A DNA stretch of 63,987 nucleotides, filler included, from Welwitschia mirabilis (lineage: Eukaryota): assembly GCA_051453625.1 (NCBI GenBank). It is 7 parts of one record of this genome, joined end to end, with 100 filler letters (N's around TTAATTAATTAA, not from the genome) between each part and the next. Parts side by side here need not be neighbours in the genome. Positions count along the whole stretch, not along the records: positions 1 to 19,003 come from JBOZIK010000001.1; 6 more parts are not named here. One strand, 5' to 3'. The position numbers and the translations under genes were made by a program. Numbering within the stretch: position 1 is the first letter of the stretch; every line of letters begins with the position of its first letter. Positions 4,001 to 58,262 of this stretch are shown piece by piece. The notes beneath the pieces were generated by a model that was not told the origin of the DNA, ran no database searches, and saw only the letters and a program-made list of their open reading frames with translations.

Positions 4001-5650
4001 CAATTCTAAAACTAAAAGTTGCACTTGAAATGTATGACCAGCAATGCCATAATTACATATACAAGTTGTACTAAGAGTTTTGATTTTATTTCCATACAGA
4101 AGTTCCATTTCTAATTGCTTTCTATTCTTAATTATAGGAAAAAATCTTTAGGCTAAAAAAAGGAAATAAAGGATTCTCATGCTTTTGGATCTAATAAAAT
4201 TCTTACAAGGAGTTCTAATAATATACATGTGGTTTCTAATATTTTTAGAGGTTGAATACCTTCATCAAAAATTAAAGCATATAATTTTCTAATACTGTTG
4301 GGGGTCTCTTCTCTTTTCTTTTTTGAGGGTGGTTTCTGACTATATGAGGACCTCCATAATTATAACATCCTCTCTCTCTAGAATTTTTAGTTGTATTTTC
4401 TAATGAAGATTCTAATTTTGGCTGGCCTAAAGGTTTACTCCTTCCTTGAAAATGTTGGGACTTTATTACATTGACCTTAACTATCTTAAATCTAATATTA
4501 TTCATAACTAGTCCTAGATGCTTCAATAATGGCCTTTTTATTAGCTGCATCTGTCTACTCTCTTAAAGTGTCCTTTTCCTTTCCTGAAAGTTCTTACCCC
4601 TAATCCATAATTCTTTACTAAGTCTAATCTTCTCTAAAGCTTNNNNNNNNNNNNNNNNNNNNNNNNNNNNNNNNNNNNNNNNNNNNNNNNNNNNNNNNNN
4701 NNNNNNNNNNNNNNNNNNNNNNNNNNNNNNNNNNNNNNNNNNNNNNNNNNNNNNNNNNNNNNNNNNNNNNNNNNNNNNNNNNNNNNNNNNNNNNNNNNNN
4801 NNNNNNNNNNNNNNNNNNNNNNNNNNNNNNNNNNNNNNNNNNNNNNNNNNNNNNNNNNNNNNNNNNNNNNNNNNNNNNNNNNNNNNNNNNNNNNNNNNNN
4901 NNNNNNNNNNNNNNNNNNNNNNNNNNNNNNNNNNNNNNNNNNNNNNNNNNNNNNNNNNNNNNNNNNNNNNNNNNNNNNNNNNNNNNNNNNNNNNNNNNNN
5001 NNNNNNNNNNNNNNNNNNNNNNNNNNNNNNNNNNNNNNNNNNNNNNNNNNNNNNNNNNNNNNNNNNNNNNNNNNNNNNNNNNNNNNNNNNNNNNNNNNNN
5101 NNNNNNNNNNNNNNNNNNNNNNNNNNNNNNNNNNNNNNNNNNNNNNNNNNNNNNNNNNNNNNNNNNNNNNNNNNNNNNNNNNNNNNNNNNNNNNNNNNNN
5201 NNNNNNNNNNNNNNNNNNNNNNNNNNNNNNNNNNNNNNNNNNNNNNNNNNNNNNNNNNNNNNNNNNNNNNNNNNNNNNNNNNNNNNNNNNNNNNNNNNNN
5301 NNNNNAAATCCTTGCTTGAGACTATAGAACTCTTTTGTCATTGCATTTTTATAAAATTATGATATGTACCTAGCTCAAAATCTAGCCTCAAATTCTTTCT
5401 ATATTAGTTGATCTAGAAATTGGAGTCTTGTCTTTTTTGCTTTCCACCATAGTAAGACACCCTTCTTTAGTTGGTGAGTTGACAAGATAACATTTTACTC
5501 TGAAGTAAAATTAAATAGTTCTAATTCTCTTGATATGGATACTAACCATGCTTTAGCCTTAGTTGCATTATCTGATCCTTAAAAAATGAGAGGATTTGTT
5601 TATATGAATTGCATCATCAATTTCTTAGATAGTTCTGCATCATCCCTTCC
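1085..5650 (-). pseudogene. Degenerate gag-pol polyprotein with C-terminal chromodomain
   Basis: Motifs: APYKMSLIELVELK (pre-RT), RIDLKS and FINDVLVYS (RT), AYELALPPQLLALHNVFHVSLLRK (integrase C-terminus), IKVHW...ATW (chromodomain), CYNYGGPHIVRNH (gag knuckle remnant). Many stops and frameshifts; gap at 4643-5305. Confidence 0.85.
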
Positions 5651-5806
5651 ATTATTTGTCTCTTATAATTCAGAATTAAGTTGTTAACCACATTAGCTAG
5701 TGATCTAACTTTAAAAGAAAAAAATTACTTCTCTTCTAGATATCATCGATTAAATCTTGTTAGGCCTTAAATTTTGCTATTAGTAAATAAAATTTATTAA
5801 CCTAAG

Positions 5807-5818
5807 GCTTTGATACCA
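5807..5818 (-). promoter_or_regulatory. Primer binding site, initiator tRNA-Met type
   Basis: Reverse complement is TGGTATCAAAGC (canonical TGGTATCAGAGC), next to the LTR edge. Confidence 0.8.
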
Positions 5819-5821
5819 ATA

Positions 5822-8800
5822 GATAATGGCCTTGACCCTTATAAGGTCTAAGTAAATTTTATTAAACATTGACTGAATTAATATTATTTGGTAAAGCTTA
5901 CAAAATACACTCTTAGTATTATAATACTACTTACTTATTTATTAAAAATTTCTAAAAAGACTTAAGTGATTAGAATCCTTTTTATTTCTAGCTATTATTA
6001 GGGTTTTACAATAAAATAAGCATTAAGATTCTTTTAAAAGAATTAATGACAAAATAAATTCTCCCTTTTAAGATTTAACTTAAAATTTCCTATTTAAAGT
6101 AATTTCATTTATGAGATTATTTAATTAAGGAAATACGTCTCTACTAAATGCACACTTGTGACTTGAAGCCCTAGATTACAGTAGCATTTGTAGTAGTAAA
6201 GAAGGTAATGATTCCCCATTTTTAGTTATGGGACTAAATCTTTCCTAAATCCACAATTGTTATTTAAAGCCATAGCTTACAAGAGCATTTGTGGAAGTAA
6301 AGAAGGTGATGATTCCCTATTTTTAATTAAGAGATTACATCTCTCCTAGATGCTCTTTTACTGCTTTAAGCTATGGCTTACAAGAGCATTCAGAAAAGTA
6401 AAGGAGGTGATGATTTCCTGTTTTTAATTAAAAGATTACATCTCTTCTAAACCCACATTTGCTACTTAAAGTCGTTACTTAGAAGAGCATTTGTACAAGT
6501 AAAGAAGATGATGATTCTTTACTTTACCATGAATACATTTTTAGTTGGTGTTAGATTTTCTTCCCATAACTCAATTCATTTAAAGGTTTACACTTTTGTT
6601 AAAACCCACTTTTACCCCTTTTAATTTAGCTTCCAAAAATTTAGGCACTTCTAAAAGTAATACTAAAAGTGCTTATTGGGTTTAATTAATGTAAAATTTC
6701 CAATTTTCATTTGTTACAAAGATTCTCTCAAAGGATAAACTATAAATTTAATATAGATTTGAAAATAAATTAGGAGCCTACTACACTTACATTAAATAGA
6801 GCACAATAGTATATTACTTAAAGCATAACAATATATTACTCAAAACTAGAAAATCCATTCCTTTAGAGCTATAATATCTATATATAAAGAGCATTTCTAC
6901 AGTCTTAAAATAATTTCTAGGATTAAATATTTTAACTTGCTTTAGAAACACTCTGATAGGACAACATTCATTTAACATAAAATAGACCTAAATAAGAGTC
7001 TAATTCATATCCAAAACTAAATATTATCACTAAAACAGATTATAACTAGATACCCATTAATTGAAAGGAATTAAACAAAACTAAATCTTCCATTTTTAAG
7101 GTAAAAATCACTACAAAAATTAAATTAATCAAGAAATACATTTTTATATTACAAACTTATTGTGTTATTAACGTTGCTATTTTTAAATAGTTTGAAAAGC
7201 AAATAAATCTAATCAAAGCTAGCAAAATTAAATTTTAATATGATAGAAAGCAATAAGAGAAAAATTAAAAGTGGAAGGTTAATTTTTACAAACCATTACC
7301 AAAGTCCTATAAGTAGGGCTAAATTAAAAGAATAAATTACAAGGCCAAAAACTAAGTCCTATAAGAAGGACTTTACAGGAAATAAATTCTAAACTATAAT
7401 AGCATTAAAAAAAAAAACTATAATGCATCTATAATGGAGAGACCATTAGCATAATTTCTAAATGCCTTTTTACTCTTTTAATAAGCATTACAAATGTTCA
7501 AACAATTCTAAAAGCTATTTTAAAAGGCTTTTATAAGCATAAGAAGGGCTAAAATAATGGATGCACATATAATAAAAAATTCCACAGCACTAATCTTAAT
7601 TCATTTTATCCCTTTAATGAGTATTTTAAAAGCTTAAGTACTTTCAAAAGCTATCTTAAAGAAGTTATAAGTTAAGAAAGGCTGAAGAATAATAAAATAA
7701 ACGAGTGCTAGAAAAAGACAGTAAGAAATTATATAGAGAAAAATGGGGGAGTTTTAGAATCTTAGAGGCGAAGGTGATTGAGAACTTTGGAGGGGATTGA
7801 GAACTTTAAGAGAGTGTTAAGAAATTTTAGGGGGACAAAGTGGGGTCAAGCGAGGGATTGAGAATCTTGGGAGGGGAATTGAAAACTTCAGATTGGGCAA
7901 CAGAGGTAAGGTGGATTTAAGGACTTTGATGAGGATGAAAACTTTGGGTTGGAGGGAAGGAAACTAAGAAACTTGAGGGGTTGGGGAAGAAGTAGAGGGG
8001 AAAAGACTTTAGATGGGGGAAGGAGAAGTTAAGAACTTTTTTTGATGTTAGGGGAGGAAGTGAGGAGGGGGGGGTTTGTTTGAGAAATTCAGGAGGAGGA
8101 GGGTTCAGAAGTTAGAGAAAGAAGGTAGAAAATTATCAAAAGACTCAAAATTTTCTACTAGTTATTTATATAAGTAAATTAAAACTTACAAAAAGAAAAA
8201 GATACATAGAGTAAAGTATTTCAAGCAAATGGTAAATGTAAGAGTTTCCATTAAATAGTACACAATTTCACTATACAAATCTATTAGAGGTTTGCATTTT
8301 TTCTGGACATGCATTACAAAATTGATCCATAAAATAATTTTTATAGCGATGAATAACAACATATGAGGTTTTTACATTTTGATGATTACAAGACCTCAAA
8401 ATTTAAGAAGAAGATAGCAGATTATTTTTTAAAGTTCTACTACCACCACTTGATGACCAATTCGTATGTAGCTTCTACACCTATAAGAAAATATATGAAT
8501 GACAACTATGAAAAACATAGTTCTCAGTATGTCCTAGGATGAGAGGAAAGGGATTTGAGAAGATCCAAGAGTATCTAAAATAGAAACAAGAGGAGGAATA
8601 TCCATGATTTACAGACTAAGAAGGTGGTCCGTTTTAATTAACTTAAGGTTATGTTCAGTAAAGTTTTTAGTTTTAACAATATAGGTTTACCCTAACTAAG
8701 AGGGATTTCATATAATTTTTGTGCAATTTTCCCTACTCTTCTTAAAAGTTTGCTTACATGATTATGAAAGCCCAATAGAGGATTTCTCCTCTAAAGTTTA

Positions 8801-9482
8801 CACTACCAAGTTACCCTGGCCAAATTTTTTATTTTACTATTTAACAAGTAAAGCCCAAACCTTAGCTTTACTTCAGGGGCCAAGAAAAATTAGCCTAAAA
8901 TCTTTAGATTTGATAAAATTTGGGTAATTTTTAAAAATTTTTGATTCTAGAATTAGTCAATAGAGGTTGGAAAAACAATAAGTTTCAAAATAAATAATCA
9001 ACCGAGAATAAGGAAAGATTGCAGAAAATAGGCAGAATTTACAAGAACAAAAATTTTAGCATCAACAACTTGATTAACCACCATGAAAAAAAAAAGGAGT
9101 TTGAACCATATTTAAACTTGTAAAAAAAAAAAAGTTTAGATCCCAAGGTTTGATATCCTTCTTCTTAATTTGAAAATCCCAAAAAGTTAAAGAAGTTCTT
9201 GAGAAGAATAGAAAAAGGACAAAGTTTTCAAGATTTAACATATTTATAAAGAAGAGTTGATTAAGTGTAACTTTTACAACAGTCCACTATAATAAAATGA
9301 AAATATTTCTTAAATAAAAAGTAATGAATAGTTTTAGATAAACACTTTAGCAATTTCAAGATAATTAATTTCTCATAGTAATCACTCATCTATGTTATTC
9401 CTTAATCTTAAAACTCCTATTTTATATGATTAAGTTATGTTAAAAATAATTTTTCCTTGGTCATGAGAGTATGGGTGTGACA
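5822..9482 (-). repeat. 5' LTR (~3.66 kb) of the chromovirus
   Basis: Lies between the PBS and the GGGTGTGACA terminus at 9482; its distal kilobase matches 1-1038. The inner boundary is approximate. Confidence 0.75.
6170..6525. repeat. Tandem repeat, ~101-bp unit x ~4, within the LTR
   Basis: AGCATTTGTNNAAGTAAAGAAGGTGATGATT-like core recurs at ~6183, 6284, 6385 and 6486. Confidence 0.85.
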
Positions 9483-11029
9483 ATATACTTTTTAAAAGAA
9501 ATTGAAAAATGATAATGAAGCTATTATTTGTAAAATGATTCAAAAATAACTATTGAAAAATAAATAAGTTAGAAATATTTAGGAAGAATCTCTTTTTCCT
9601 CACAAAAATTATAAAACATAGGATTATTAAAATGATATCAAATGCCTACAATAGTATCACAATGATAAATGTCCACTTTAGTTGTAAACACAAAACAAAA
9701 ATAGAGTAAGGAGAAAAGGTAAGTAATAAACATATTAAATATAAAATGAAATGCAAAACTAGTCACTTGTTTTTAATGATTAATGTTATTCAACTAATAG
9801 AAACTTTAATGGAAAAAGGAAAACTAAATAAACATTTATTAGTAAGTATTAAAATGAAGTAGGAAATCAAATTAAGGATTGAGTGTTTAAGAATTACACT
9901 CTTTAGGAATTGTTCTTATTAGATTATTAAGATTAAAGGAATCTAATGAAAATCTTAACAATATATACTTTTCACTTGAAATTTCTAAAAATGATACATT
10001 GATTAGAATATAACTTATTTATTTGTGTATTATTATTGATATATTATCTAAATCATGCATAAGTGATAACATATCATTAAATATTAGTTATATTTTTCAA
10101 ATTCAAATCTTTTTAGAGATAACTAACTTTCACTAGAATTTCACTGAGGGTGAAAGTTGATAATTTCTTAATTGATACTTTAACTTTCAAAGTTTGCTTA
10201 GGTTGCTCTGAGACTTCTCTCATTAAACCTTAGGTTATTCCATTAACTTTTTCTTGAATTTTAGGTCTTTGATAAAACTTCACTTTATCCTTACTTATCA
10301 GACTTTCTTACTCCCACTTTTGCTTAGAATTCTCTCATGTTATGTGTGGCAAAATCTTACATACTTCATAAAAATGTAAATGGTAGAAATTTGAATGGAG
10401 TCAAATTCAATGAACTTTTACTAAAAATTAACTTTATAAAAATAACCATCATTCTTTTAGGGAAAATCATCATAGCTTATTATAAATTTTCATTGTTCAA
10501 TTCCCATCAAATTTGGGACTCTACATCTTTAAAAAACATAAAAAAAAATGCCTATGAATTATGATTTTCCATCATCTAGCAATAGATTTAATCCAGTATT
10601 CAAAGAATTAAATCCAATTACTTATTTTCTTACTATTTAGAAGCCTTAACATTTGTGAAGTTTACTTCTCATTAAATAATCTAAATTCATTTTTAAAAGG
10701 AATTAACGCAATTGTTCATTACATGATTAATTTACATATCATTAAGGTGTCATCTAGTGTGCATGATATTCCTTCTTTATATAGCTTTTCATATGGTTAG
10801 TGTAGTTTCTTAATGATTGTTGAAATTCATTTAGTTAACAAAACAAAATAACTAATTATTTTTCTTCTTTAATTTAATCATTAGTTAAGTTATATTGCTT
10901 TTATTTAAATTTTGATGTAAAGCTATCCCCACTGAGCTCCTTGGCCCTTATTTTTTCCTTTAAAATTAAACATGAACTCCAACTGAATACATTGGTTCTT
11001 CCTTTTGGCTACATAGCCAGATATGAGCT

Positions 11030-11330
11030 TACTTCTAGAACTTTGATAGCCTATTCTATCTCTAAGGTTAAATATTAGCTTTCTTTTACAATCTTGGTGT
11101 CTTGTATGATCTCAAATATAAGTATTTTCTTCATTTGAGAACCTTCACACTCTATCCAGTCTCCAACACTAAGTATTCACCCCCTTTTAGAATCTTGATG
11201 CCTTATGTAGCCTCCAAAGTTAATTACTAATTCCCTTCTAGAACCTTGACACTCTACATAGCGTTAAAGGTTAATTACTAGCTCCCATTCAAATCTAGAT
11301 GCTTAAATATAATTACTCTAAAAATTATTA
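11030..11330. repeat. Degenerate minisatellite, ~51-bp unit x ~6
   Basis: GAA(C/T)CTTGA-like cores at 11038, 11089, 11139, 11190, 11241 and 11291. Confidence 0.6.
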
Positions 11331-11830
11331 TCACCTTGCTGTCATGATTCTAATTTAATTAATGCTTAATTATTTTGATCTACTTTAAAGTGCTCTTTAT
11401 AATGTTAGGCTTAACCTCCCTAGCTTATTACCATCCCTAGTTTGTGTACTTACTTTGATATTTTGGATACAAAAATATCATCATCTCTCTCATAAGTGAT
11501 ATTATAATAATTGATCTATTACATTAAAAAAGTAAAAATGCATTTTTTTTAAAAAAAGTATATATATTAAACTAGTAAATCTACATCAAGGGACAACAAT
11601 GCTTGAGCGTTACAAAAGCATTGAAATGTTTATAATAGCAAGGACAGTAAACTAAACTAAAAAGGGGGCGAAACCACCCCTTAAGAAATGACATAACAAG
11701 AAGTTGCCTAAAGGGGTGCAAGCACTAATAAAAATAACCATACAAAAGGACTTAAGACCACTAAAGATTGGGGGCGAAACTGCCGTTAGAAACTAGAACT
11801 TACAAAAAAATCGGAATACTAGGAAAAAGA

Positions 11831-12081
11831 CTAAAAAAAAAAGAGGAGACCAGCCCTATACAATCCTCTGCAGAAAGGAAACATGCTATTATAATTGTGC
11901 TCGAGTAGAAATCTGCCCAGGTCATCTGAGAGCACGTCAAAAGCTTGATTGATTTCCTTGAATTCTTCAGCACTAGCTGGGTTCTTATCTAGATGAAGGC
12001 GGAGAGCTTTCTTTCTATACGTCAACTTTAAAGCCTGGGGTAGAGCTTAGTGAAAGAGACACGGAGTAACGAATAGGCATC
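11831..12081 (-). pseudogene. DnaJ/Hsp40 J-domain coding segment at the 3' end of the LINE reading frame
   Basis: Reads DAYSLLRVSF (adjacent frame) then ALPQALKLTYRKKALRLHLDKNPASAEEFKEINQAFDVLSD. This matches the J-domain consensus DyYevLgv..a...eikkAYrklAl..HPDkn....eefkeineAyevLsD. HPD reads HLD (CTA for CCA). Confidence 0.85.
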
Positions 12082-12089
12082 TTTTCAAA

Positions 12090-12545
12090 CCCTGTATCAT
12101 CACTAGAAGAACCTCCCTTTTGGTTATATTCATGTTAATATCTTGAGTTTGGAGTTGGAGTTCCGAATAAGAGGAATCAGATGTAGAGCTTTGGGTGGAA
12201 CTAGGGCCTGAAGCTAAAGAAGAAGTGTGCTAGGCATGCCCACCTTATTCCTGGGAAGGGTGAGCTGAGGAAGAAGGGCCTGAAGCTAGGAAGGAATGGG
12301 AAGGAAACTGAGCTTGAGCTGGTCTAGGGAGATGCTCCTAGGGAGATTTCTGTTGGTCTAGGGATGAATGCGGTCCTTCTGGATGAGCTGGGAGTGAAGA
12401 TGACCACCTATTGCTAGGGCTGGAACGAGTTGCTATTTCTTCAAGAATAGGGTTTCTAGCTGCGGAGGAACTTCTGGAATAAGTTATCTTAGGGATGGTC
12501 TAATGAGGACAGTGACAAGGAGGAGGGGGAGGGACCTCTCTGGCT
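12090..12545 (-). pseudogene. Pro/Ser-rich low-complexity linker, in frame with LINE ORF2 and the J-domain
   Basis: EVPPPPPCHCPH*...HSFLASGPSSSAHPSQE*GGHA*HTSSLASGPSSTQSSTSDSS; LASGPSS occurs twice. Confidence 0.65.
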
Positions 12546-12549
12546 CAGG

Positions 12550-13111
12550 CTTCTTGTGCTGCTCTCCAAAGGGCTAGGATTAAGCTTAAGTGCCTAGAAG
12601 AGTCCTTATGCTTGAGTATTTGAATGAAGAAATAGGGAAGATTCACCTGACATCCCAGGTCAAGAGCCTTAAGAAATGTAAAATGAATTCCAAAAAGCTT
12701 AGAACAATTACAAGATTAAATGAAATATCTGTCCACCAGTTCTGCTCCAAGGCCCCACAGGTGCGGTAACGCCTTCCTACTAATATACCTACTGGGCAAT
12801 TTAGGAATTCCACCTAGAAAGGAATGGAGGGCTTCTTGTTGGCCTCTGCTTCCAAATAGGATCCTCTCGCCTTCCACTGGGACCTCCATTAGTCTGACAA
12901 AAGATTCTTCAGAAATTTCTATCGGGATTCTTCTGAAAGTTGTTCATCCTCTTCTCCATCGCCTATTAAAAGGAGTAATATCAGCCCCAATGTCACCTCT
13001 CAGTTTATGCAGAAGGGTTTCCCATCCCACTGCCTGTATTTTCTCCCACATCTCCGGGCATCCCTCGAAGAGGCTTGGGTCAGCAGGCTCATAGTTTGGA
13101 GTGGCACTCAT
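12550..13111 (-). pseudogene. Globular domain resembling the 'putative plant transposon protein' (Transposase_32/Athila-ORF1-like) family, in the ORF2 frame
   Basis: MSATPNYEPADPSLFEGCPEMWEKIQAVGWETLL...FRRIPIEISEESFVRLMEVPVEG...ALPHLWGLGAELVDRYFI...FTFLKALDLGCQVNLPYFFIQIL. Motif order (GW, I.IS...P.eG, L...W, AL..G..VNL) resembles this family by eye only. Confidence 0.5.
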
Positions 13112-13179
13112 GGCGATTTTAATTTGAGAATGATTACAGATTATCTTTCTAGCTGTATAAATAGGGAAGGGAAAAGAGG

Positions 13180-16100
13180 CGTTATTGAAAATTATACTAT
13201 TTCTGATCTACCATATTTGCCATAGAGTCAAGCGAATCCCAGCTACTAAATGCATATCAGAGGTACCATAGCTTTGATAGCATTTTGTCATAATGGCAAT
13301 TAGCTCCTTGCTCTATGTGCATTGATGAAAGAAATGTTGTGCAGTTTTAAGATTAGACTAACAAATGGGACATTTAGCATCAACCTAAAATCCCCTTTTT
13401 GGTAATCACTCTCTTGTCAAAATTTGGTAATGCTCTTTTGGCCAATAGAATACTTTAATTTTTTCCTGTATTTATCCCCTCCAATGCTTCTTGTACCCAT
13501 ACTGTTTGCCGTATTTCGTGATCAAGATCTGCTTGGACTTTTCACTTTAAGAAATGTTCAATTTAAAAAGTTATTGGTGAGCTCTGCAAAGATGCTTCCA
13601 AAGATATGATACTCTATGCTCAATTGTTCAATTTTTGTACTTGTGAGTAATTAAGTTATTCCATGGTTTTCCTCCCTCTTGTAATCTCTTTAGAATCCTT
13701 TGAGCTCCTATGAGAATACAATCTTCAGATTTTTAAATTCCCCATCCTCCTGATTTCTCAGGATGAGCTATGATTCCCATTTATAGAGATGTATTCTGTG
13801 GTGGTTTTTTCCCCCTAACCAGATAAAATCTTTTAAGGTCCTATTAATTTTTTAAATGATATCCTTNNNNNNNNNNNNNNNNNNNNNNNNNNNNNNNNNN
13901 NNNNNNNNNNNNNNNNNNNNNNNNNNNNNNNNNNNNNNNNNNNNNNNNNNNNNNNNNNNNNNNNNNNNNNNNNNNNNNNNNNNNNNNNNNNNNNNNNNNN
14001 NNNNNNNNNNNNNNNNNNNNNNNNNNNNNNNNNNNNNNNNNNNNNNNNNNNNNNNNNNNNNNNNNNNNNNNNNNNNNNNNNNNNNNNNNNNNNNNNNNNN
14101 NNNNNNNNNNNNNNNNNNNNNNNNNNNNNNNNNNNNNNNNNNNNNNNNNNNNNNNNNNNNNNNNNNNNNNNNNNNNNNNNNNNNNNNNNNNNNNNNNNNN
14201 NNNNNNNNNNNNNNNNNNNNNNNNNNNNNNNNNNNNNNNNNNNNNNNNNNNNNNNNNNNNNNNNNNNNNNNNNNNNNNNNNNNNNNNNNNNNNNNNNNNN
14301 NNNNNNNNNNNNNNNNNNNNNNNNNNNNNNNNNNNNNNNNNNNNNNNNNNNNNNNNNNNNNNNNNNNNNNNNNNNNNNNNNNNNNNNNNNNNNNNNNNNN
14401 NNNNNNNNNNNNNNNNNNNNNNNNNNNNNNNNNNNNNNNNNNNNNNNNNNNNNNNNNNNNNNNNNNNNNNNNNNNNNNNNNNNNNNNNNNNNNNNNNNNN
14501 NNNNNNNNNNNNNNNNNNNNNNNNNNNNNNNNNNNNNNNNNNNNNNNNNNNNNNNNNNNNNNNNNNNNNNNNNNNNNNNNNNNNNNNNNNNNNNNNNNNN
14601 NNNNNNNNNNNNNNNNNNNNNNNNNNNNNNNNNNNNNNNNNNNNNNNNNNNNNNNNNNNNNNNNNNNNNNNNNNNNNNNNNNNNNNNNNNNNNNNNNNNN
14701 NNNNNNNNNNNNNNNNNNNNNNNNNNNNNNNNNNNNNNNNNNNNNNNNNNNNNNNNNNNNNNNNNNACAAAAGACTTTAACTTTCTCTGATATTTGTCCC
14801 CTCTAATGCTTCTTGTGGCCTTCCTGTTTGCCATGTTTCTTAATTAGGATCTGTTTAGATGTTTCACTCTGAGCAATGTTTAATTTAGAAAGTTGTTGAT
14901 TAGCTTTGCAGAGATGCTTCCAAAGATAAGACACTCCATGCTTAATTGTCCAGTTTCTGTACTTGTGATTCATTAAGTTACTCTATGGTTGTCCTTCCTC
15001 TTGTAATCTCTTTAGAATCCTTTGAGCTCCTGTGAGAATACAATCTTTAGGTTTTTTAATTTCTCATCCTCCTAATTCCTTAGGATGGGATATGATTTTC
15101 CATTTACATAGGTGTATTCTATGGTGGTCTTTTTCCCTTGACGATATAAAATATTTTAAGATCCTATCAATTTTTTGAATGATATTCTTTGAGGGGTAAT
15201 AATGGAAGCTATATACCAAAAGGAAGAAATTAGACAGGAATTTATAAAAATGATTTTAGCCTTTAAAGATAGAAAGTTATTGTGCCATAACCTGCACCTC
15301 CTTTGTATATATTCTAGAATGTAATTCCAATTACTTGTCCTATGTGAATTCCGTAGAGGAATGCCGAGGTAGATGTCCTAAAGGTCTCCTAACTTTACAT
15401 TCATGATGTGGGTGATTTTGCTCCTCTAATACATTATCAGTCTAAGATAGGTATTCTTGATTTGTTCTAATTAGTGTGAAGCCTTGTTGCCTCTGCAAAT
15501 GTGTTCATAGCATTTTTTATAACTTTTGCTTACTGACTGGTCACCTTAGTCATGATGATGGTATCATCTGCATAGTGATTATTAAGAAAAATTTGACCTT
15601 CAATTCTAATTCCTGTAACTCTGTTATTTCTTAAGAAAACCTGTAAAACATTCATCACAAATAAAAAAAGGTATGGCAATAGAGGATTCCCTTATCTCAA
15701 GCCTCTTCCTACTGAGAAGAAATTTGATCTATGACTATTGATCTCCACACTAAACTCAGCCAAAGCCTGCATGTCTAGCCATAGGTTAATAATATCTTAA
15801 GAGAAACCGATTTTCCTAAGAATGCACCCTAAAGCTTGCCAACTAACTGAGTTATAAGCTTTTGCAATATCTAGTTTAGCAATGAGAAGCAAAATCTTGT
15901 ACTTTTTAACAGAGTGCATAATCTCATGAGTTAAAAGGATTTGGTCTTGAATATACCTAGAATAAATGAAGCTAGTTTAATTCTATGAGATCACATTGGG
16001 AAGCAAGGGGGCGATTCGATCAACCACAACTTTTATGAAGATTCTATAAATGACGTTGCACATCCCTAAGGGCCTAAAGTCCTCTGGTCTACTGGCATCC

Positions 16101-17460
16101 CTATTTTTAGAATGAGGACTGCTCTAGTTCTGTTCATCTCTCTAAGAATCTGTCGATTGTGGAGTATTTCCTACATTGCATCATAGAGGTTATCCCCTAG
16201 GATATAGAAGTAGGTTTTAAAGAGTTCAACTGACCACCCATCCAAACTAGGTGCTCGGTTATTCTTCATCAATCTGACTACAGCTAGTATCTCCTCTCTA
16301 CTTAAGGGTTTACTCATTATTTGATTATCCTCCTCTAGAATCTTCTTGTTCTTTAGGGTTAGGCTGGGGGCAATATCGTCCAATTTTTAAAATTTTTGAA
16401 GATGGACCTACATTTCCTTTGCTATTTCTTCTTCGTTTTCTGTAACATAGCCTCCTATTGTGAGCTTTTTAATTCTGTTATCAGATCTATGCTGGTTGGC
16501 CTACTAGAAGAAGAATCTAGTATGTCTATCACCTTCTTTAAGCTACTTGATCCTTGATCATTCTCTCCAATAATGCTTTTCATCTTTATGAATTTCTTGG
16601 AGATCCATTAGGCACTGATATTTTCTATTTCTAAGGCTTTTTTGATTACCCCCCTTGTCCTGTTCAGTTTGAATGTAGTTAAGTTCCTCCTCGATTTCAG
16701 ATTTTGAGTCAAATATCTCCTTGTCTTTCCTTCTCCAATCTCTTATATGAGCCTTTAAAGTATTAAGGCCTTTGTATAAGAAGGTGACAGGTTGTATACC
16801 ATCGTATTGTGACTAGATTCTTTCTAGAAGCACTCTAGTTTCGGTTCTGCTGATTTAGTACCATTTCATATGAAACGGGGCTTTTAAGGGTGAAAAGGAC
16901 CCTGCTCTAAGAATAATGGGATGGTGATCCAAGACAATCTTATTCAGGCCACAAGCTTCAAGAGGAAGTTTAGCTAGATGTTTCTCAGCCATCACTCTAT
17001 CGATCTTGGACATTATTAGCTCTGCACATGCTCTTCTATTTGACCTAGTGTATTTACAACCAGTGATGGATATATTTGTGAGAGAATGTTTTACCAAAAA
17101 ATCTTTTAGGATAGAAGCCCCTTTAGAGTTCCAGTTGTTACCACCTAATTTTTCCCAGTGATGTAGGAATTGATTAAACTTACCCATAATTATTCATTTG
17201 GATTTGTCTACTACATTCCTTTGAGCTTCTTCCAATACCATAGCCTTATCTAGATTGTGTTGTGGACTGTAAATATTTGTAATGGTCCATCCTTCATTTT
17301 TAAGAAAAACTGTAATGTGATTCTGACTGCTGCAAATCAAATCTACTTCTTTCTTAGTAGAAACCAAAAGACCACCAGAGTTACTTTAGGCACCTACACT
17401 AAAAGAGGTCCATTGCTGTCATAGACTAGATCTATATTACGTTGAATAATCAGATTTTGT
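13180..17460 (-). pseudogene. LINE ORF2: APE endonuclease, reverse transcriptase, zf-RVT
   Basis: EN: SGGLL, TNIYSP, MGKFNQ, SKIDRV, LDHHPI. RT region: RAPSLDGW, LDIAKAYNS, GRGLR*GNPLLPYLF, HYADD (~15565-15577), YLGIPL. zf-RVT: CPIC...HFFHQC (~13318-13373) and LWQIW*IRNSIIFN. Interrupted by stops and by gap 13867-14767. Confidence 0.9.
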
Positions 17461-17479
17461 AGGGTCTTTTTCTTGTTTT

Positions 17480-18528
17480 TTTCAATGTTCTACGGTAGTT
17501 GCTTAGGAACTATTTGCAACATTCTTTGTAGTTTCTTACTCTCATAAGGTTTTGTTACTGGGCCTTCCCTTCATCTAAGTTTCCACTTCATTATATTTAT
17601 CGTCTTGAAGGTTTAGTTAGGTATCATTCTCATCCATGAGAGGTTGAAATGGGTTTTCCTATTTTGGATCTTTCTTTCTCTTACTTTTCTTTGGAAAAAT
17701 GGTGGTGCTTTTTCTAGTTTGTTCCTTTCTTTGCTTATGTCTGCATACATTATGATTATGACCAGTCTTCCCACAAAAAGTGCAAGTCTCCTTTTGTTAT
17801 CTTTAATATCAATCAACCTCTTCCAGCATTCTTCACATAGGTGACCCAATTTTCCACAGTGTAAGCATTTCTTCTTAGGAGGAGCACATCTTCCCGAGGG
17901 TGTCCCAATTTCCCACAGGTTGAGCAGGGAATCGGAAGGTTCTCATAAGTAACTTCTGGATCATAAGTTCCCCATTTGGATCTAAAATTTATGGATTGGA
18001 TTTCCTTAGTATCTTTGATACTTATCCACATATAGAATCTAGCTAAAACCAATCTAGTTTGTTTAATCGCGATTCGATTTAGCCTAATCAAATCCCTAAA
18101 CTGACAGGCCATCCTTCTTAGTAGACCTTCATCCCAAAACTCCAAAGGAAACTTGTGGATGTGGATCCAGATCAGAAGTTTCTTAAACAATTACAGGTTC
18201 AAGTGCATCGTCGGTATCCATTTGGCTAGGGCGAGGCCTCTAACTCCAAAAAACCATGATCCTCTTACTATATTTCATCCTGATCTTGCTTATTGTCTAG
18301 CTAGAATAAAACTAGCCCTTCTGGCATTGCAATAACATCCAACTTGTTGATCCCTGTCCATTTCATTGTGACCCAATCACGGATCTGATCTAACTATGAT
18401 CGAGAGCCGAATGAGCCAAACTTATCAATGAGATTGAATTTAAGTTTTTTCTCGATTTCACTATATGCATCTTTGTCGATGTCCAATACGAGGGATTTCC
18501 CCTCTATGGAGAGCTGGGTTTTCTCCAT
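17480..18528 (-). pseudogene. LINE ORF1 (DUF4283-type N-terminus and CCHC zinc knuckles)
   Basis: ATG at 18528 (MEKTQLSIEGK...), IWIHIHKFPLEFWDE, VTYENLPIPCSTCGKLGH, and a second knuckle CLHCGKLGHLCEEC. The 3' end is approximate. Confidence 0.85.
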
Positions 18529-19047
18529 CTTGGGGTTAAAACCTTTAAGAAAAACCTTAGAAACTAATCAAAACTACAAGACAAAAGAAGTCCCAAAACT
18601 TAACTGACAATAGCCTGTCTTATGGCCGAAAATGCCCCTCCTACTATGTGATTAGGGACCAAAACCACCCTCACTAAATCACAATCTCCAAGACCTACAA
18701 CCTTCTACTCTCCAGATCCGCTGAATCTTGCAGAGCTCAGAACCTTAGCAGAGCTCCTTCTCTCTCCGTCCTCCATGAAAAGGCATTTATCACATATGTT
18801 TAATGTGTTTAAATCTATATATGTACAAAATGGTATTCGATACAAAATACAAATCGCAAAGGAAAATTTTTCATTAAAATTATAAAGCAATTTCAAGTGG
18901 AGGGGAGGGGGGTTTGAGAACTCTGGAAGGTAAGGTGGAGTTTTGGGCAGTTGAGTAAGGTTCACATGTACATACATGGGTGTTAGGTATGAATCGACTA
19001 ATANNNNNNNNNNNNNNNNNNNNNNNNNNNNNNNNNNNNNNNNNNNN

Positions 19048-19059
19048 TTAATTAATTAA
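19048..19059. other. Artificial scaffold spacer TTAATTAATTAA (also at 34368, 40968, 50914, 58207, 62805)
   Basis: Identical 12-mer centred between runs of 44 N (100 bp in total), six times; it gives stop codons in all frames. Confidence 0.95.
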
Positions 19060-19103
19060 NNNNNNNNNNNNNNNNNNNNNNNNNNNNNNNNNNNNNNNNN
19101 NNN

Positions 19104-22100
19104 GATCTTCCTCCAAATCTAAAGTGTTAACTAAAACCTTTTTCTACTACCTCAAAGACTAATATTAACAATAATTTATTTCCAAAGTGAAATTTTATCA
19201 ATCCAATTCTAGTGTCTATGATGCAATGGGTTGTTGCACAGAAAGCTCTACTTAAGAGTATGGGATATCCATTTTGATTCTTAAGTTCTAAAACAACAAC
19301 ATCTATGGGGTAGAAAGCTTCCTCTATCTGAATAACTAANNNNNNNNNNNNNNNNNNNNNNNNNNNNNNNNNNNNNNNNNNNNNNNNNNNNNNNNNNNNN
19401 NNNNNNNNNNNNNNNNNNNNNNNNNNNNNNNNNNNNNNNTTCCACTCATAATTTTGATAATTTTTTCTTTTATTATTTGTGTTAGTTTTGAATGGTTTTA
19501 TAAAGATAGGCTAGGTTTTAGATTTTCCTCCAAATCTAAAATATTAACTAAATCTTTTTTGGCTGCATCAAAGACTTGTGTTGAAAATTGTTTATTTCTA
19601 AAGTGAAATTTTATTAATCCAGTTCTAGTATCTATGATGCAATGGGTTGTTACACAAAAAGCTCTACCTAAGAGTAGGGGATATCCATTTTGATTCTCAA
19701 GTTCTAAAACAACAACATCTATGGGGTAGAAAGCTTCCTCTATCTGAATAACTAAGTCCTCACATCTAAAGGTTTCTTTATGAATGCATCAGCTAATTCT
19801 AAGGTAACTGATGTAGGTTCTATTCATCCTTCTAATTCTAAAAGTTTATAAATATGCAAGGGCATGATATTAACATTAGCTCCTATATCTATCAATGCTT
19901 TCTTAATTTTTTGGTTCCCCTCTAAGGTGACACTAATAGTTATTGCCCTCGGATCTTTAAATTTTGGACACTTCTTGGAAATTAAATTGCAAATAAATTG
20001 ATCTAGGAAGACTTTAATAGGGATAGTCCATTTTTGTTTTCTTTTGATTAGGTCTTTCCATAGCTTTGAGTATTTGGAATTTTCTCAGAAAAGTTTCTAG
20101 AAAGGTAAATTAATACTCATGTCTTACATAAAGGCTTTCAGATAATCATCAAAGATAGGGTTTTCGTTAAGCCAATTAAGCCGTGAAGTAGTAGTTTTCC
20201 TTTGTGATGAATTTTTCTTTTTATTACTAAGTGAAGGAGGGAAGGAATGATTTTTTAAGATTTCTATGTCCTCTTCCTCATCGTTTTGTCATTTTGGGAA
20301 GTTGAAGCCTCATGAGTAGGGGGAGTTATGTCATTTTCACTCTTGTCACTACTTTAAAATCTTTTCATACTTCGTTAAGATTAGGTAAAGGTTGAGTGGC
20401 AAGGGTCCCTTGTAGTCTTTGATTGGTAAGCATGTTTTTTTACAATATGTTCACTAGATTTTCTATATTTGTATTTGTATTTTCTTGAGTTTTTTGTAAC
20501 TCACCAATAGAGTTNNNNNNNNNNNNNNNNNNNNNNNNNNNNNNNNNNNNNNNNNNNNNNNNNNNNNNNNNNNNNNNNNNNNNNNNNNNNNNNNNNNNNN
20601 NNNNNNNNNNNNNNNNNNNNNNNNNNNNNNNNNNNNNNNNNNNNNNNNNNNNNNNNNNNNNNNNNNNNNNNNNNNNNNNNNNNNNNNNNNNNNNNNNNNN
20701 NNNNNNNNNNNNNNNNNNNNNNNNNNNNNNNNNNNNNNNNNNNNNNNNNNNNNNNNNNNNNNNNNNNNNNNNNNNNNNNNNNNNNNNNNNNNNNNNNNNN
20801 NNNNNNNNNNNNNNNNNNNNNNNNNNNNNNNNNNNNNNNNNNNNNNNNNNNNNNNNNNNNNNNNNNNNNNNNNNNNNNNNNNNNNNNNNNNNNNNNNNNN
20901 NNNNNNNNNNNNNNNNNNNNNNNNNNNNNNNNNNNNNNNNNNNNNNNNNNNNNNNNNNNNNNNNNNNNNNNNNNNNNNNNNNNNNNNNNNNNNNNNNNNN
21001 NNNNNNNNNNNNNNNNNNNNNNNNNNNNNNNNNNNNNNNNNNNNNNNNNNNNNNNNNNNNNNNNNNNNNNNNNNNNNNNNNNNNNNNNNNNNNNNNNNNN
21101 NNTTAATCTGCTATAGAAATGGTCGATTAATTCTACTTCAAAAAAGACATCTATAGGGTTTGAGTGTAAAGCCACAAAGAATCTCTCATAGGCAGAGGCA
21201 TAGTCTTTATTAGGAAGTTATTGGAAGTTTGTAACTTCTTTCTTACATTTCTAGATGGTATTTTTTCTCATGAATCTCTTATCAAATGCTTCTTAAACTT
21301 GGTTCCAAGGTTTTAGGCTTTTATGAGGGATCGTTCTGATCCAAAGTTTAGCCTTATCTCATAATGTCATGGGAAAGATGATCATGTAAGTTCTATCAGT
21401 GATACACTTTTTACCATTTCTGGATGTAAGAATGAGTTATTCAATTTTTGTGATGTGTTATAGGGAGTTTTCATCAGGTTCTCCTCTAAAGATAGGATAA
21501 GCGTTTAGGTTTTTCAGTTCTACATCATCACTAGGAGGTAAGTCAAAGGGGTTTTGGATTTAAGTCTTTTATTTGCTATGAGATCTCTCAGAGTAGCACG
21601 AGTGTTTAGTTAAGAAGGAGTAGAAGTAGAAGTTCTAATGACTGGGGATGGATTCAGCGAGATAGGTTATTTTTGATGAGAGGTCGACATGGTATTAATA
21701 TCAGATTCTTCTACATAATTAAAATAAAAAATTTCAAGAAAATTTAAAGTTTGCATACCTAGGCTGTTTTGATTTTCAAATTCAAAATTTAGGAAACCTT
21801 CTCGGATATTTTCTGCAATGAACTACCTTTCTCTCTGGTATTTTTCACCTTTTTCTATTTTTACCATTTAGTTTTAGGTTCCTAAGAGGTATCATCCTGT
21901 ACGTTGTCTAGACAATAACTAGACGATAAAAACAAAAAACACAGACAACCATAGAATGAGGGAAAGTAGAAATTGGGACATTCATCTGACTGGGACGTCT
22001 AGATGACAAGGGGGATATCAGTGGTTAGTAAAAAATTAAAACTGAAATAAACTACTTATAAAGAATTGGTATACCAATGCTGCAGAAAACATTTAGAATA

Positions 22101-29600: not shown

Positions 29601-32600
29601 ATGTAGAATTAAGAAATTTAAGTATTTACTCAACTTTTTTAGGGGAAATTAGAGGACGACCATTTTCAACATTTAGCTGACATTGAATAACTTATGCTTA
29701 TCTTGGGAAATGGGAAGAAACATATTAGTGATCATACTTATAAGATTATTTTTCTAGTCACACTTAGGGGAAGATAAAAAGTTTGACTCAAAACTATCCC
29801 ACATAAAAGTCTTAAATCTTGCAGTCAAGTGTAATAAGTATTTAAAAAAGAGTTTTGAGTGACAATTCCATGAGGAAGAGAAGAAAATAAGTAACCAACT
29901 TTCAACAAAAAACTCACTTGGATTATGTAATAGCCTATGAACTTTTCATAATTACTAGCTATTCCAACCCTATTGATGAATTTTGTAAAGAAGAGCTAGT
30001 AGATTATTTTTACAGTGGATTGGATGCTTCAATAAAGCTATTGGTAGATTTTTCTTGTGAAGGAAACTTATTGAATTTAAGCCTAGATGATGCTTGGAGT
30101 GTGCTAGAAAATTTGGTAGAAGTTAAACTTGGCCTAAATCCACTAAAGAAAATTGCACTATAGGACAAAATATAAAGGATTTAAAAGAAGTGAAACATGA
30201 CAAGGAAGAAGAAAGGGAGGACTCAACCAACCTAATGAAATATTTTATAACTACTTTGGAAAAATATACATAAATGATAGTTAATGTAAAGGTAGTAAAA
30301 AAATAAAATTTTAAATTATAAAATTTGTGAAGATGACTCTCATCCAACAAAAGAATGACCTTTGTTACTAGTTTGTAAGGAAAATATGTTTGAGGAAGTG
30401 TGTTCTTTCAACCAAAGAACACCTAATTTTAAAAACCAACCACGATCCCAACAAAGATTAGGTGGGCAATCTTGATGAAAACCATATGAAAATAGATTCA
30501 ATAACTCTAACTTACAACCTAATTTTCAACAAAATTAGAATGATCCACTTAGAGAATCTATAGAGGAGATGAGAAAAGTATAGGAGAAAACTAAGAGCAA
30601 TATTAAAAACTTGGTAACTATGATTAAAAAAACAATGCTTACTAGCGAAAGACCACAAGGGTCTCTTGCATTTCAACCAATTCCCAATTCAAATGAAATT
30701 AGAAGGGATTTAAAAATAATGATAAGAAGTGAAAAGGATATAACCCTCCTAACTATAAGGTTCAACTTCTAAACAAAATAATGAAATAAATGGGGAAGAT
30801 GATGTGGAAATTTTAGATTCTTAAAATTTTCCATTTACATCATCTACTAAGGCCTCCACTAAAATAATTTAAAAGAAAACAAAAGAAATAAACCATATAC
30901 ACTTATCTTGATAAATTGAACACAAATCCTACCTTTGATGAATACCTAAAAGCTTTGATGCAAAAAGTCAATATCAACCTACACTTTTGGAAACTTTTAC
31001 AAGAAAATCCCAAATATTTTGGAAACTTTTACAAGAAAATCCCAAATATTCTAACTTATGGAAAGATTTATAAAGAAGAAAGAAAAAAATGTATCATTCC
31101 TAGCAAAGTTTTTCGTGCTCAATATCTTTCCAACTTAGTCATGCAAAAATATTATAAATTTAAAGACCCAGGGGATGCAACTATAATTATTACCTCAAAG
31201 AAAATAAAAGAATTCAAAAATATTTGATTGACATAGAAGCAAGTGTAAACATATGCCTCTTCACATATGTAAAATACTTGGATTAGAAAATAGAGTTGAA
31301 CCTACACCTATCATCTTAGAATTAGCTGATACCTTAATCAAGAAACCATGGGGAATTATCAAATACCTAGTTATCCAAATTTAGAAATCTTTTTATCCCA
31401 TTGATGTTGTCATAATTGAGATAGAATATGATAGAGAATATCCACTACTTTTAAGAAGAGCCTTTTATGCAACTGCCCATTATATCATTGACACATGATC
31501 TAGGATGATAGAATACCATTTTAATAATAAATAAATTACCATTAGAGTCTTTGATACTGTTGAGAAAGACATAGAAACTGAGTTTAACATTAAAGATGAA
31601 TTGAAACAAGCCTTGTTTTTACAACATCGACTAATAAAAGAGAGATTAATCATGTTACATGAACCAACTTTATATGATGAACCCAGTGAAATAAACTATC
31701 TTGAGTCTGAGGATGAATAACACATAGAATTGGAAGAAGCTCAACATCTTTACTCAATAGAAAAACTTTTTAAAGAGTATTGTTCCATGTTTATCATTCC
31801 CATAACATTTGGAATGATAGAACCGCATATCACCCATGAACTGAAGAAATTATTCCAAGGATTAAAATATATTTTTCTTTTTAAAAATCAAATACAACAT
31901 TTGATAATCAGTGACCTTCTCAATTTCAACAAGAATCTAATTTGATCTCACTTTTAAATTCAAATAAAAATGCCTTTGCTTGGATACATAAAGACTTAGA
32001 TGCCATTCCTCTTTCTATAGTTTNNNNNNNNNNNNNNNNNNNNNNNNNNNNNNNNNNNNNNNNNNNNNNNNNAAGAAGACTAAATTTGATCCTTAATCAA
32101 ATTGTCAAAGATGAAATCATTAAACTTATGGAGGCTGAAATTATATATGACATATCCGATAGTGAGTGAGTTAGTCCTTTAACAATAGTTTCAAATAAAA
32201 TGGGAATATGCATTGATTTTACAAAAATTAATGAGGTCACTAAATATGATCATTGCCCTTTACCCTTTCTTGATCAAGTTCTTAATAGAATCCAAGGTTA
32301 TGCCTACTATTATTTTCTTGATGGGTATAGTGGATATAATTAGATTTTAGTAGTAAGTAAAGATGAAGCTAAAACTACTTTCACCTCTTTCTTTAAAACC
32401 TTTGCTTTTAAACAAATGCACTTTGGACTTTGAAATGCCTCTGGAACCTTTCAACGAGCCATGATGGGAATTTTTTCTGATATGATAGAAGACTCTATTA
32501 AAAGTTTTATGAATGAATTTTCCATCTTTGATGATACTTTTGAACAAACTATTATGAGATTAGAAAAATTCCTAGATCGATGCATTGAAAGGGGTTTATA

Positions 32601-40923: not shown

Positions 40924-41059
40924 NNNNNNNNNNNNNNNNNNNNNNNNNNNNNNNNNNNNNNNNNNNNTTAATTAATTAANNNNNNNNNNNNNNNNNNNNN
41001 NNNNNNNNNNNNNNNNNNNNNNNACTAAATAAGTAACATTCATAAGTTTAAAATAAGAA

Positions 41060-50869: not shown

Positions 50870-50969
50870 NNNNNNNNNNNNNNNNNNNNNNNNNNNNNNN
50901 NNNNNNNNNNNNNTTAATTAATTAANNNNNNNNNNNNNNNNNNNNNNNNNNNNNNNNNNNNNNNNNNNN

Positions 50970-57300: not shown

Positions 57301-58262
57301 GGGTAATGTTTAAATGTTATTATTAGATAATTAATTTTTAGGCCACGATCCAAACACATGCAAGATGAAAACTTAGGTAATGAGGATGATTAAGTTCTTA
57401 TAGCTCTTAGTTATATTTCTTTTCTATAAAGCTTGAATGATATGTAGAATTTATGTAAGTTTTATTTTTCCTAAGAAATTATCTATAATAAAGATAAAAT
57501 AAATTTCTACAATTGGATTAGGTTTCTTTTATTAGGTAGAATAAAGATTATAGGTGTTAAATAACTCTAATGAGTTACCTATCTTAATCTCATAAAATTT
57601 GCACCTTGATTTTACTTGAAACTCCAAAATTTGATGACCTTAAACATGCAATTAGGCATTGATTAATAGCCAAGTGATTGAAGAGATTAATTTAATCCAA
57701 ACTAGAGTGTCTTAACATTCAAATTTGAGCTAAAAAATATCAATTACAAGTAGTTTGAATGGGCCACACAAGTGTGTGGGAGACCCACATTACATGGAAT
57801 TGTGTAAACAAAGCAGAGAGTTAGTGAAGATAGGTGGGCCATGTTCCATCAAAATGTTTGGCTTAAAAAATACTTTAAAGTTGATAAAATTTCCTAAAAA
57901 TATTTATAAGGATTTAAACATGATCAAAATAATCTTTGAAAATGAATTTTCACCTAGTTATTTAAATTGATTAGAAAATCTTACAAGATTGTCAATCCTT
58001 TTTTTTATTTCAAGAATGCACAATGCATGTCATACTTCACCACTTATTTCATTGATCTTTACCCCATGTTCAATGAAGATAAAAAAATTTTCAACACCTT
58101 ATGATTAATCATTAGTGCAGTCTATGACATTTGCACTACTAACAGCAATCCATACTAAGAAANNNNNNNNNNNNNNNNNNNNNNNNNNNNNNNNNNNNNN
58201 NNNNNNTTAATTAATTAANNNNNNNNNNNNNNNNNNNNNNNNNNNNNNNNNNNNNNNNNNNN

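Follow-up and report, generated by a model that had tools for sequence, protein, structure and literature searches.

A decayed LINE tail in Welwitschia mirabilis that probably represents a high-copy family with an acquired accessory-domain and J-domain module

Why should the reading frame of a plant retrotransposon run on into a J-domain, the part of a chaperone partner that engages Hsp70? The question is raised by the remains of a long interspersed nuclear element (LINE) on the minus strand of a stretch of the Welwitschia mirabilis genome (assembly GCA_051453625.1) that comprises 63,987 nt in seven joined parts and is referred to here as the window. LINEs are regarded as minimal two-gene elements, with RNase H as the well-known added domain in plants; members of the plant L1 clade carry a first open reading frame (ORF1) with DUF4283 and a zinc knuckle, and a second (ORF2) with an endonuclease (EN), a reverse transcriptase (RT), zf-RVT and, in some, RNase H. 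J-domains hand a client to Hsp70 and activate its ATPase, for which they need an HPD tripeptide that lies between helices II and III. The initial annotation of the locus, made by reading the sequence, proposed that one frame extends from zf-RVT through a "globular domain X" and a linker into a J-domain and on to a stop at 11831, that all of this lies inside an A-tailed retroposed element, and that an ancestral LINE family encoded EN-RT-zf-X-linker-J on one chain or a separate ORF3 starting at the ATG at 13111. We find that positions 11543-13866 probably derive from an old L1-type LINE family of high copy number, as a dead copy of its 3' part, and that in this family the ORF2 tail adjoins an acquired coding module. 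In the same, probable but by no means certain, reading, the module consists of a VANC/PMD-like domain, a Ser/Pro linker and a class-A-like J-domain, followed by a 3' untranslated region (UTR) of ~280-310 nt and poly(A).

The argument starts from the frame itself. Read on the minus strand with codon starts at 1 mod 3, the frame of the zf-RVT tail extends as far as a stop at 11833-11831, and along it follow in order CPIC...HFFHQC, LWQIW*IRNSIIFNN, the ATG at 13111, a domain of ~190 amino acids (aa), a Ser/Pro-rich stretch and ALPQALKLTYRKKALRLHLDKNPASAEEFKEINQAFDVLSD. Between 13258 and 11834, we count exactly nine in-frame stops (13210, 12946, 12718, 12547, 12502, 12340, 12247, 12232 and 12049), the same number as in the initial annotation, against 23-41 in each of the remaining five frames and 24.9 +/- 4.8 in shuffled sequence, with 0 of 2000 shuffles holding nine or fewer; for these two reasons, we take this to be a real decayed coding frame and exclude chance as its origin. 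The two protein families that the first reading had placed at its ends are both matched in this frame, zf-RVT (PF13966) with E 1.6e-6, or 1.7e-11 and 45.1 bits in Pfam for a longer piece of the tail, and DnaJ (PF00226) with E 5.1e-8. The module was coding in the ancestors of the family, and the window copy is inactive: eight stops follow the ATG, helix I is frameshifted, and HLD has replaced HPD.

A shortage of stops alone cannot separate past selection within a LINE from recent capture. A master LINE copy may have acquired coding sequence from elsewhere, whether through 3' transduction (read-through), through template switching or through recombination with an accessory ORF of a long terminal repeat (LTR) element that was already fused to a J-domain, and then spread it, in which case the module would never have served the LINE and would owe its likeness to a decayed ORF only to having been intact at capture. 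Both 3' transduction and template switching are established L1 biology, and a LINE tail followed by a foreign ORF, a new UTR and poly(A) is the outcome expected of them. The junction between LINE and module speaks against such a capture, being stop-free and in the frame of ORF2, which would be met about once in 20 cases by chance (a rough estimate: 1/3 frames x ~0.16 for the lack of a stop); the sequences of other copies, described below, bear on it further.

The J-domain is recognised by its Pfam profile at 33.4 bits, versus a cut-off of 27.8, over residues 472-510 of P0001 (~12037-11921) and profile positions 15-56 of 63. The nearest solved relatives are the J-domain of dnj-12 (2och, E 1.7e-10) and DNAJA1 (E 2.4e-9), among 36 solved J-domain sequences at E <=0.01, and the domain, which we describe as class-A-like, is closest to class A/B cytosolic J-proteins. 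In the window copy, the HPD tripeptide is lost, with CAT CTA GAT, read as HLD, at 11995-11987. Helix I (DAYSLLRVS) was re-found at 12081-12055 in an adjacent frame, as first described, where it is flanked by stops and out of frame with helices II-IV; the spacing from helix I to helix II becomes canonical, judged by hand, once two extra bases at 12048-12047 are ignored.

Evidence at the level of the family comes from other copies in the genome. Contigs of three DNA runs (5551 in X1, 11773 in X6 and 9801 in X9, ~250 nt long and mostly 80-95% alike) and the reads of one RNA run (X18) were aligned to positions 10600-13866 at a likeness of at least 80%; observations on individual pieces are drawn from 24 of ~27,250 contig pieces, 40 of 928 majority differences and the 20 best-supported loose ends. 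Depth amounts to hundreds to thousands throughout ~11545-13866 in all three DNA runs, and the flank at 10927-11471 is low-copy (depth 0 in X1, ~7 in X6 and ~10 in X9, ranging over 6-14 in the latter two). By depth, the bin that holds the J-domain (11908-12016) ranks first of 30 in X1 and X6 and second in X9 (2429, 8645 and 6750 in X1, X6 and X9), and the junction bin (13107-13215) is also among the deepest (1160, 7741 and 5674). The lowest depth of the coding part is found in the linker (12344-12452; 486, 597 and 639), where many skip joints fall between 12261 and 12653.

A J segment present in single copy, left by a one-off transduction, had been named at the outset as the finding that would speak against a J-domain-bearing family, and the J bin proves to be high-copy in all three DNA runs. 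A fragment of a host DnaJ mRNA or gene, transduced or retro-copied once beside a LINE, would agree with the closeness of the J-domain to ordinary class A/B cytosolic J-proteins, but the J segment occurs in thousands of diverged contigs from all three runs, of which it is the deepest part in two and the second deepest in the third. We therefore regard a one-off capture of a host DnaJ, contradicted as it is by contig depth, as extremely improbable. Two further candidates were rejected. That a host DnaJ gene follows the LINE and contributes its exon 1 is ruled out by the multi-copy state, the lack of a start codon and the A-tailed common end, and part of an LTR element is ruled out by the lack of an LTR and by the low-copy flank that directly adjoins.

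The same contigs tell whether the LINE tail and the module belong together. Among the 24 pieces listed, the diverged contigs tile 11686-13228, and one of them (X1 record 7, 12962-13228, with 47 differences and 82% alike) spans the ATG at 13111 and enters the LWQIW/IRN part of ORF2. The best-supported break of all lies at 11542-11543, right after the A run (72 contigs in X6, 82+21 in X9), and beyond it the contigs continue into unlike sequences, T-rich on the plus strand and A-rich on the minus strand, with an agreement of 0.44-0.49. Because these A-rich continuations are unlike and the flank is low-copy, we read the break as the picture of poly(A) tails at different insertion sites. Depth, a shared 3' end, a junction-crossing contig and the absence of the junction from the 20 best-supported loose ends lead us to treat ORF2 tail, module, UTR and poly(A) as one family-level unit. 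The J-domain accordingly lies inside a retroposed, A-tailed element, as had been claimed, and is seen in other copies to be multi-copy and contiguous with the ORF2 tail.

Were the LINE tail and the module instead two different abundant repeats, set side by side here by nested or adjacent insertion, this would fit the several-fold variation in depth along the stretch, the shortness of the contigs with few bridging pieces among the 24 listed, and the fact that the LINE body and the LINE tail are different copies. It is improbable, however, given that none of the 20 best-supported loose ends falls at or near the ORF2/module junction (13111-13215), whereas the end at 11543 has 72-103 contigs per run, that a contig as diverged as X1 record 7 crosses this junction in one of the deepest bins, and that the unit has no LTR and ends in a poly(A)-type terminus beside low-copy DNA.

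The family-level unit appears in better repair elsewhere than in the window. A loose-end consensus at 11973 reads HPDKN (CAT CCA GAT AAA AAT on the minus strand) in 15 contigs of X1 and 14 contigs of X9, which bears out the view that HLD is a decayed HPD, and it differs from the window copy by silent changes in the adjoining Leu, Lys and Asn codons (CTC/CTT, AAA/AAG and AAT/AAC). The majority letters of other copies change D to E at 11936 and L to I at 12031, both toward the usual J-domain, and R to G at 12952 and N to Y at 12967, both in agreement with P0002, a 91-aa ORF from the Welwitschia mirabilis transcriptome (75% identical, E 2.7e-38) that begins exactly at the Met of 13111; the window stop at 12946-12944 (TGA) aligns with an Arg of the same protein. 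At 11858, another letter is found at depth 304.7 of 320.4 in X1, and because it creates a stop at 11860-11858, most copies would end the ORF nine codons before the window copy does. Since other copies read HPD and more usual residues, we regard the window copy as a privately decayed member of a family with a more canonical module. Returning to the capture of a module that never served the LINE, copies mostly 80-95% alike nonetheless keep the J bin the deepest in two DNA runs and second in the third, and two divergent contig groups, compared by hand, retain HPD-K-N through silent differences. We give such a capture real, if minor, weight.

At the 3' end, 280 nt separate the stop from the A run (11830-11551), which itself is A8 at 11550-11543, in keeping with the ~280-nt 3' UTR and A-tail first described. 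The UTR yields no significant RNA structure (z-score -0.79; 48 of 200 shuffles fold as well). A motif, GTTTCGCCCCC, occurs twice in the minus-strand UTR, at 11690-11798 and 11640-11700. At the other end of the stretch, 11-12 reads of X18 share only ~32 nt with the LINE tail (13781-13813), and on either side of it they run into sequence that is unrelated yet identical among them (agreement 1.0); an expressed transcript probably holds this tiny LINE-derived piece.

What, then, is the domain between the LINE and the linker? An exhaustive phmmer search gave 41 matches at E <=0.001, six of them on the N-terminal domain and 35 on the J-domain, whether or not they extend into the low-complexity linker, and none was seen to cover both domains. 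Six matches come in two stretches: P0003 has two N-terminal domains, P0004 and P0005 have two J-domains each, and the other three (103-223 aa) are too short for both. In the 593-aa P0003, from Ginkgo, the two copies of the accessory domain stand in tandem. The distant matches to the N-terminal domain are P0003 (6.3e-8), P0006 (1e-5), P0036 from Taxus, and P0018 and P0021 from metagenome or run assemblies, and in all five the alignment shows the same conserved start, Met-Gly-Gly...Glu-Pro.

When metagenome contigs were scanned with P0018, 28 loci were obtained, 15 of which are matched by the module protein (tblastn E 1.6e-10 to 4e-7) and none by the LINE frames of the window. In four of the seven long loci (L002, L007, L016 and L020), the homolog, by eye, follows same-strand pol-like ORFs at a distance of 1-2 kb, with a Ty3/gypsy pol confirmed by Pfam only for L002 (RVT_1 2e-27, RT_RNaseH 1.5e-32, rve 4.4e-12); L001 has a neighbouring gypsy element on the opposite strand, and L008 and L011 lack the upstream region. 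Transposase_32 (PF20167) reaches 14.3-23.6 bits on the homologs (E 5.3e-5 to 0.037), below its cut-off of 45 bits, and the N-terminal domain of the module is a remote relative of this family rather than a formal member. In a sunflower study, Transposase_32 is assigned to the 3' accessory ORF of an Athila element and related to Athila ORF1 (PMC11728184). The former "globular domain X" can now be described more closely: judged by these matches, it is a relative, ~190 aa long, of the domain that Ty3/gypsy elements of the Athila type carry in their 3' accessory ORFs, and one homolog has a predicted fold that resembles VANC21 and PMD proteins. That its relatives belong to LTR elements and not to LINEs is what would be expected if a LINE had merely captured and amplified it.

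The homologs contain no J-domain, the seven ORFs downstream of them match neither a J-domain nor any Pfam family at E <=0.01, and a 422-aa ORF in L024 has no DnaJ match. Long ORFs follow the accessory domain in L002, L007, L008, L011, L016 and L020 (for example, L011:2510-4522 with 671 aa and L008:2742-4091 with 450 aa); they contain repetitive stretches rich in Pro, Glu and Gln, and Pfam recognises no family in them at the same threshold.

The fold was approached through an intact homolog (L001:7743-8342), whose model from a 15-row alignment has a mean predicted local distance difference test (pLDDT) score of 87.7 and a predicted template-modelling score (pTM) of 0.86. The one solved protein that it matches is VANC21 in complex with its target DNA (PDB 9LNJ/9LNK): Foldseek gives E 0.12, a probability of 0.90 and a template-modelling (TM) score of 0.51, with every other row at a probability of <=0.04, and VIA-align against 48161 chains gives Z 7.5, a value within the range below 8 that can reflect a common arrangement, with a root-mean-square deviation of 3.9 A over 179/200 residues and Z 2.4 for the runner-up. 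This match far exceeds all others, extends over the entire domain and makes biological sense. VANC21, a sequence-specific anti-silencing protein encoded by the MuDR-type DNA transposon VANDAL21, binds the non-coding DNA of the element that encodes it and strips it of DNA methylation and silencing (PMC8756742, PMC5735166, PMC10398659), and structural homology links VANC to MAIN, a PMD protein (PMC13547354). From a homolog that is 24% identical, we infer that the N-terminal domain of the module has a VANC21 (MAIN/PMD-like) fold, and the likeness is a lead for function, not proof.

Whether the module was made as an extension of ORF2 or from an ORF3 of its own can be argued both ways. The ATG at 13111, singled out early on as a possible start, proves meaningful, since distant homologs and the Welwitschia transcript ORF begin exactly there: P0002, P0006, P0018, P0021 and P0036 start at, or carry, Met at the aligned position. 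That the homologs themselves begin with this conserved Met, and that P0002 starts there, would favour a separate ORF3, and the stop that lies upstream of P0002 may be a product of decay. The frame shared with zf-RVT and the 32 stop-free codons from IRN to the ATG in the window copy would favour a fusion with ORF2. Plant L1 ORF2 usually extends ~50 aa past the W..RN motif; in the window copy, the module begins ~25 aa after it.

The coordinates are collected in Table 1. The N gap is flanked by two LINE ORF2 segments (15189-14771 and 13866-13449) that are homologous to each other, and because they are only 82.6% identical over 419 nt (blastn), the RT-bearing body (18700-14767) and the tail that adjoins the module (13866-13100) must be two different copies, designated A and B. 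Copy B is a second LINE copy, either 5'-truncated or interrupted by the gap, and the arrangement represents either a tandem or nested pair of LINE copies or a join made within a repeat during scaffolding. In copy A, Pfam recognises RVT_1 (E 1.6e-22) and DUF4283 (E 1.2e-8) in frames read with X at stops; Exo_endo_phos has no match at E <=0.01 in three frames of 14767-18700, where the copy is heavily decayed. RT, zf-RVT and a plant-type ORF1, the marks of an L1-type element, are all present, though spread over copies A and B. No further copy of the element was found elsewhere in the window by blastn or tblastn.

Table 1. Features of the LINE and module locus, in window coordinates
Feature	Position	Strand	Remarks
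LINE copy A, decayed, L1-type	14767..18700	-	DUF4283 (ORF1-type) ~18274-18038; reverse transcriptase ~16087-15452; 3' part enters N gap
900-N scaffold gap	13867..14766		Between copy A and tail piece B
LINE ORF2 C-terminal piece, copy B	13208..13866	-	zf-RVT ~13516-13304; LWQIW*IRN motif; high-copy
Junction, 32 codons (IRNSIIFNN...SQIKIA)	13112..13207	-	Open; frame common to zf-RVT and module; stop-free up to ATG 13111 in window copy
Module N-terminal domain	12545..13111	-	Begins at ATG 13111; appears Athila-type accessory ORF / Transposase_32-like; putative VANC21/PMD-like fold, via homolog; 2 internal stops
Ser/Pro-rich linker, probably disordered	12131..12544	-	Most variable part of the family; many length differences among copies
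J-domain	11900..12081	-	Helix I 12081-12049 in adjacent frame; helices II-IV from 12046; HLD 11995-11987 in HPD place
ORF end	11831..11860	-	Window copy stop 11833-11831; stop 11860-11858 in most other copies, TAT in window copy
3' untranslated region, 280 nt	11551..11830	-	No significant RNA structure; stops spare no frame
A8 tail, common 3' terminus of repeat family	11543..11550	-	Contig break directly after A run

The surroundings are AT-rich (guanine-cytosine (GC) content 0.30 in the window) and crowded with transposon remains, and the genome as a whole has a GC content of ~29% (PMC8275611). Open frames at 30892-33351, 37496-39141 and 49225-50707 look, by eye, like pieces of Ty3/gypsy RT/RNase H and of Ty1/copia gag/pre-integrase. 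Six identical spacers of 44 N, TTAATTAATTAA and 44 N (19004-19103, 34324-34423, 40924-41023, 50870-50969, 58163-58262 and 62761-62860) resemble an artificial all-frame-stop linker that joins separate contigs, and pieces beside one need not be genomic neighbours. The LINE and its module sit within a single piece, 5306-19003.

Several observations weigh against a LINE family with a J-domain module of its own and hold our confidence in it down. Of the EN-RT-zf-X-linker-J or ORF3 family first envisaged, the zf tail, N-terminal domain, linker and J-domain are contiguous in copies, but EN, RT, zf and module were not seen together on one uninterrupted copy, the RT body lying across the 900-N gap, and neither an intact copy nor a full-length element was seen in the window or the contig pieces. 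The junction is bridged by more than 31 nt on both sides in one contig among the 24 listed. The N-terminal domain's relatives in other plants sit in LTR elements, without a J-domain, and Transposase_32 has no match on the window copy even at E up to 10. The model of the window copy itself is poor (pLDDT 59.6, AF2), with a best Z of 3.7 in the fold search and VANC21 absent among the best 50 rows, and the homolog's own match falls short of Z 8. No database protein joins RT, N-terminal domain and J-domain; length-restricted homolog searches at near and longer lengths, the last of which is weak evidence, gave none, and at shorter length only P0002. The target-site duplication (TSD) suggested at the outset could not be reproduced: between the 40 nt that follow the A run and 13800-19300, the longest word in common is one 9-mer inside the LINE, with none of at least 10 nt, in what is a weak test with the 5' end hidden by the N gap. 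Evidence of expression is thin, at 59 reads of X18 on the stretch, all less than 95% alike and on both strands.

How does such an element compare with systems already described? DUF4283, RVT_1, zf-RVT and a poly(A)-type 3' end are features that the Welwitschia family shares with the L1-clade LINEs of plants. The precedent for an extra C-terminal ORF2 domain is the RNase H of some plant L1s (PMC5203782), a paper whose main text contains neither "DnaJ" nor "ORF3"; the added part in Welwitschia is not RNase H but an LTR-element-type accessory domain followed by a J-domain. With the 3' accessory ORFs of Ty3/gypsy Athila/Tat elements (PF20167; Athila ORF-1 PF03078), it shares homology over ~190 aa, the same Met, a low-complexity tail and a place downstream of the polymerase gene; unlike them, it is hosted by a LINE rather than an LTR element, and the homologs we examined are without a J-domain. 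Like VANC21, it would be an accessory protein encoded by a plant transposon, but the likeness in fold was obtained with the 24%-identical homolog and not with the window copy, sequence identity to VANC21 is 9-10%, and VANC has no J-domain. In bdelloid rotifers, an accessory ORF family is likewise shared by LTR and non-LTR retroelements (PMC5408684), although these are animals with other ORF families, and no J-domain is mentioned in the part of that source used here.

Closer in logic are two host systems. SUVH1/SUVH3 with DNAJ1/DNAJ2 counteract the effect of methylated transposable elements on expression (PMC6923318), and MBD5/MBD6 with the J-protein SILENZIO and HSP70 silence (PMC8616336). The shared principle is a targeting module combined with a J-domain by which Hsp70 reaches chromatin or a replication complex; there, the parts are separate host proteins, whereas here they would form one transposon-encoded chain. 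Among viruses, the polyomavirus T antigen carries its own J-domain. In the literature searched, which did not extend to supplementary tables of accessory-ORF domains, none of the papers listed describes a J-domain encoded by a retrotransposon, and a review of the accessory ORFs of plant LTR elements (PMC7264820) has 0 occurrences of DnaJ or Hsp70. What appears new is an L1-type LINE with an acquired module of accessory domain and J-domain; domain gain by LINEs and the sharing of accessory ORFs across retroelement classes are known.

For any specific mechanism, our confidence is far below that in the structural reading. If the module served the LINE, the protein, made as an ORF2 extension or as ORF3 from the ATG at 13111, could bind through its N-terminal domain to a target, either the DNA or chromatin of the element itself or its ribonucleoprotein (RNP), the target named in the initial annotation, with the linker giving reach; the J-domain would then switch on host Hsp70 at the bound target, and Hsp70 would either help in RNP assembly or unloading or counteract methylation-linked silencing. 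Recruitment of Hsp70 is what we infer from the J-domain-bearing module. Because of the VANC21 fold match, we rank a chromatin target slightly above an RNP target, and a chromatin or anti-silencing role is at least as plausible as one in the RNP. In its most specific form, the LINE would encode its own counter-silencing factor, with the VANC/PMD-like domain finding the element's own DNA or chromatin and the J-domain firing HSP70 there, mimicking or hijacking the host's methylation-reader/J-protein switches, an idea that we consider rather unlikely and put forward only as speculation.

If true, such a counter-silencing factor would have let the family grow to a very high copy number even though few known plant genomes are as heavily methylated as its host's. 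The finding would also mean that accessory genes move between plant retroelement classes, and that relatives of anti-silencing factors may serve as targeting proteins in retrotransposons too, not in VANDAL DNA transposons only. The J-domain offers a testable biochemical handle on all this, HPD-dependent stimulation of Hsp70, and ties the family to the J-proteins that take part in the reading of DNA methylation in plants.

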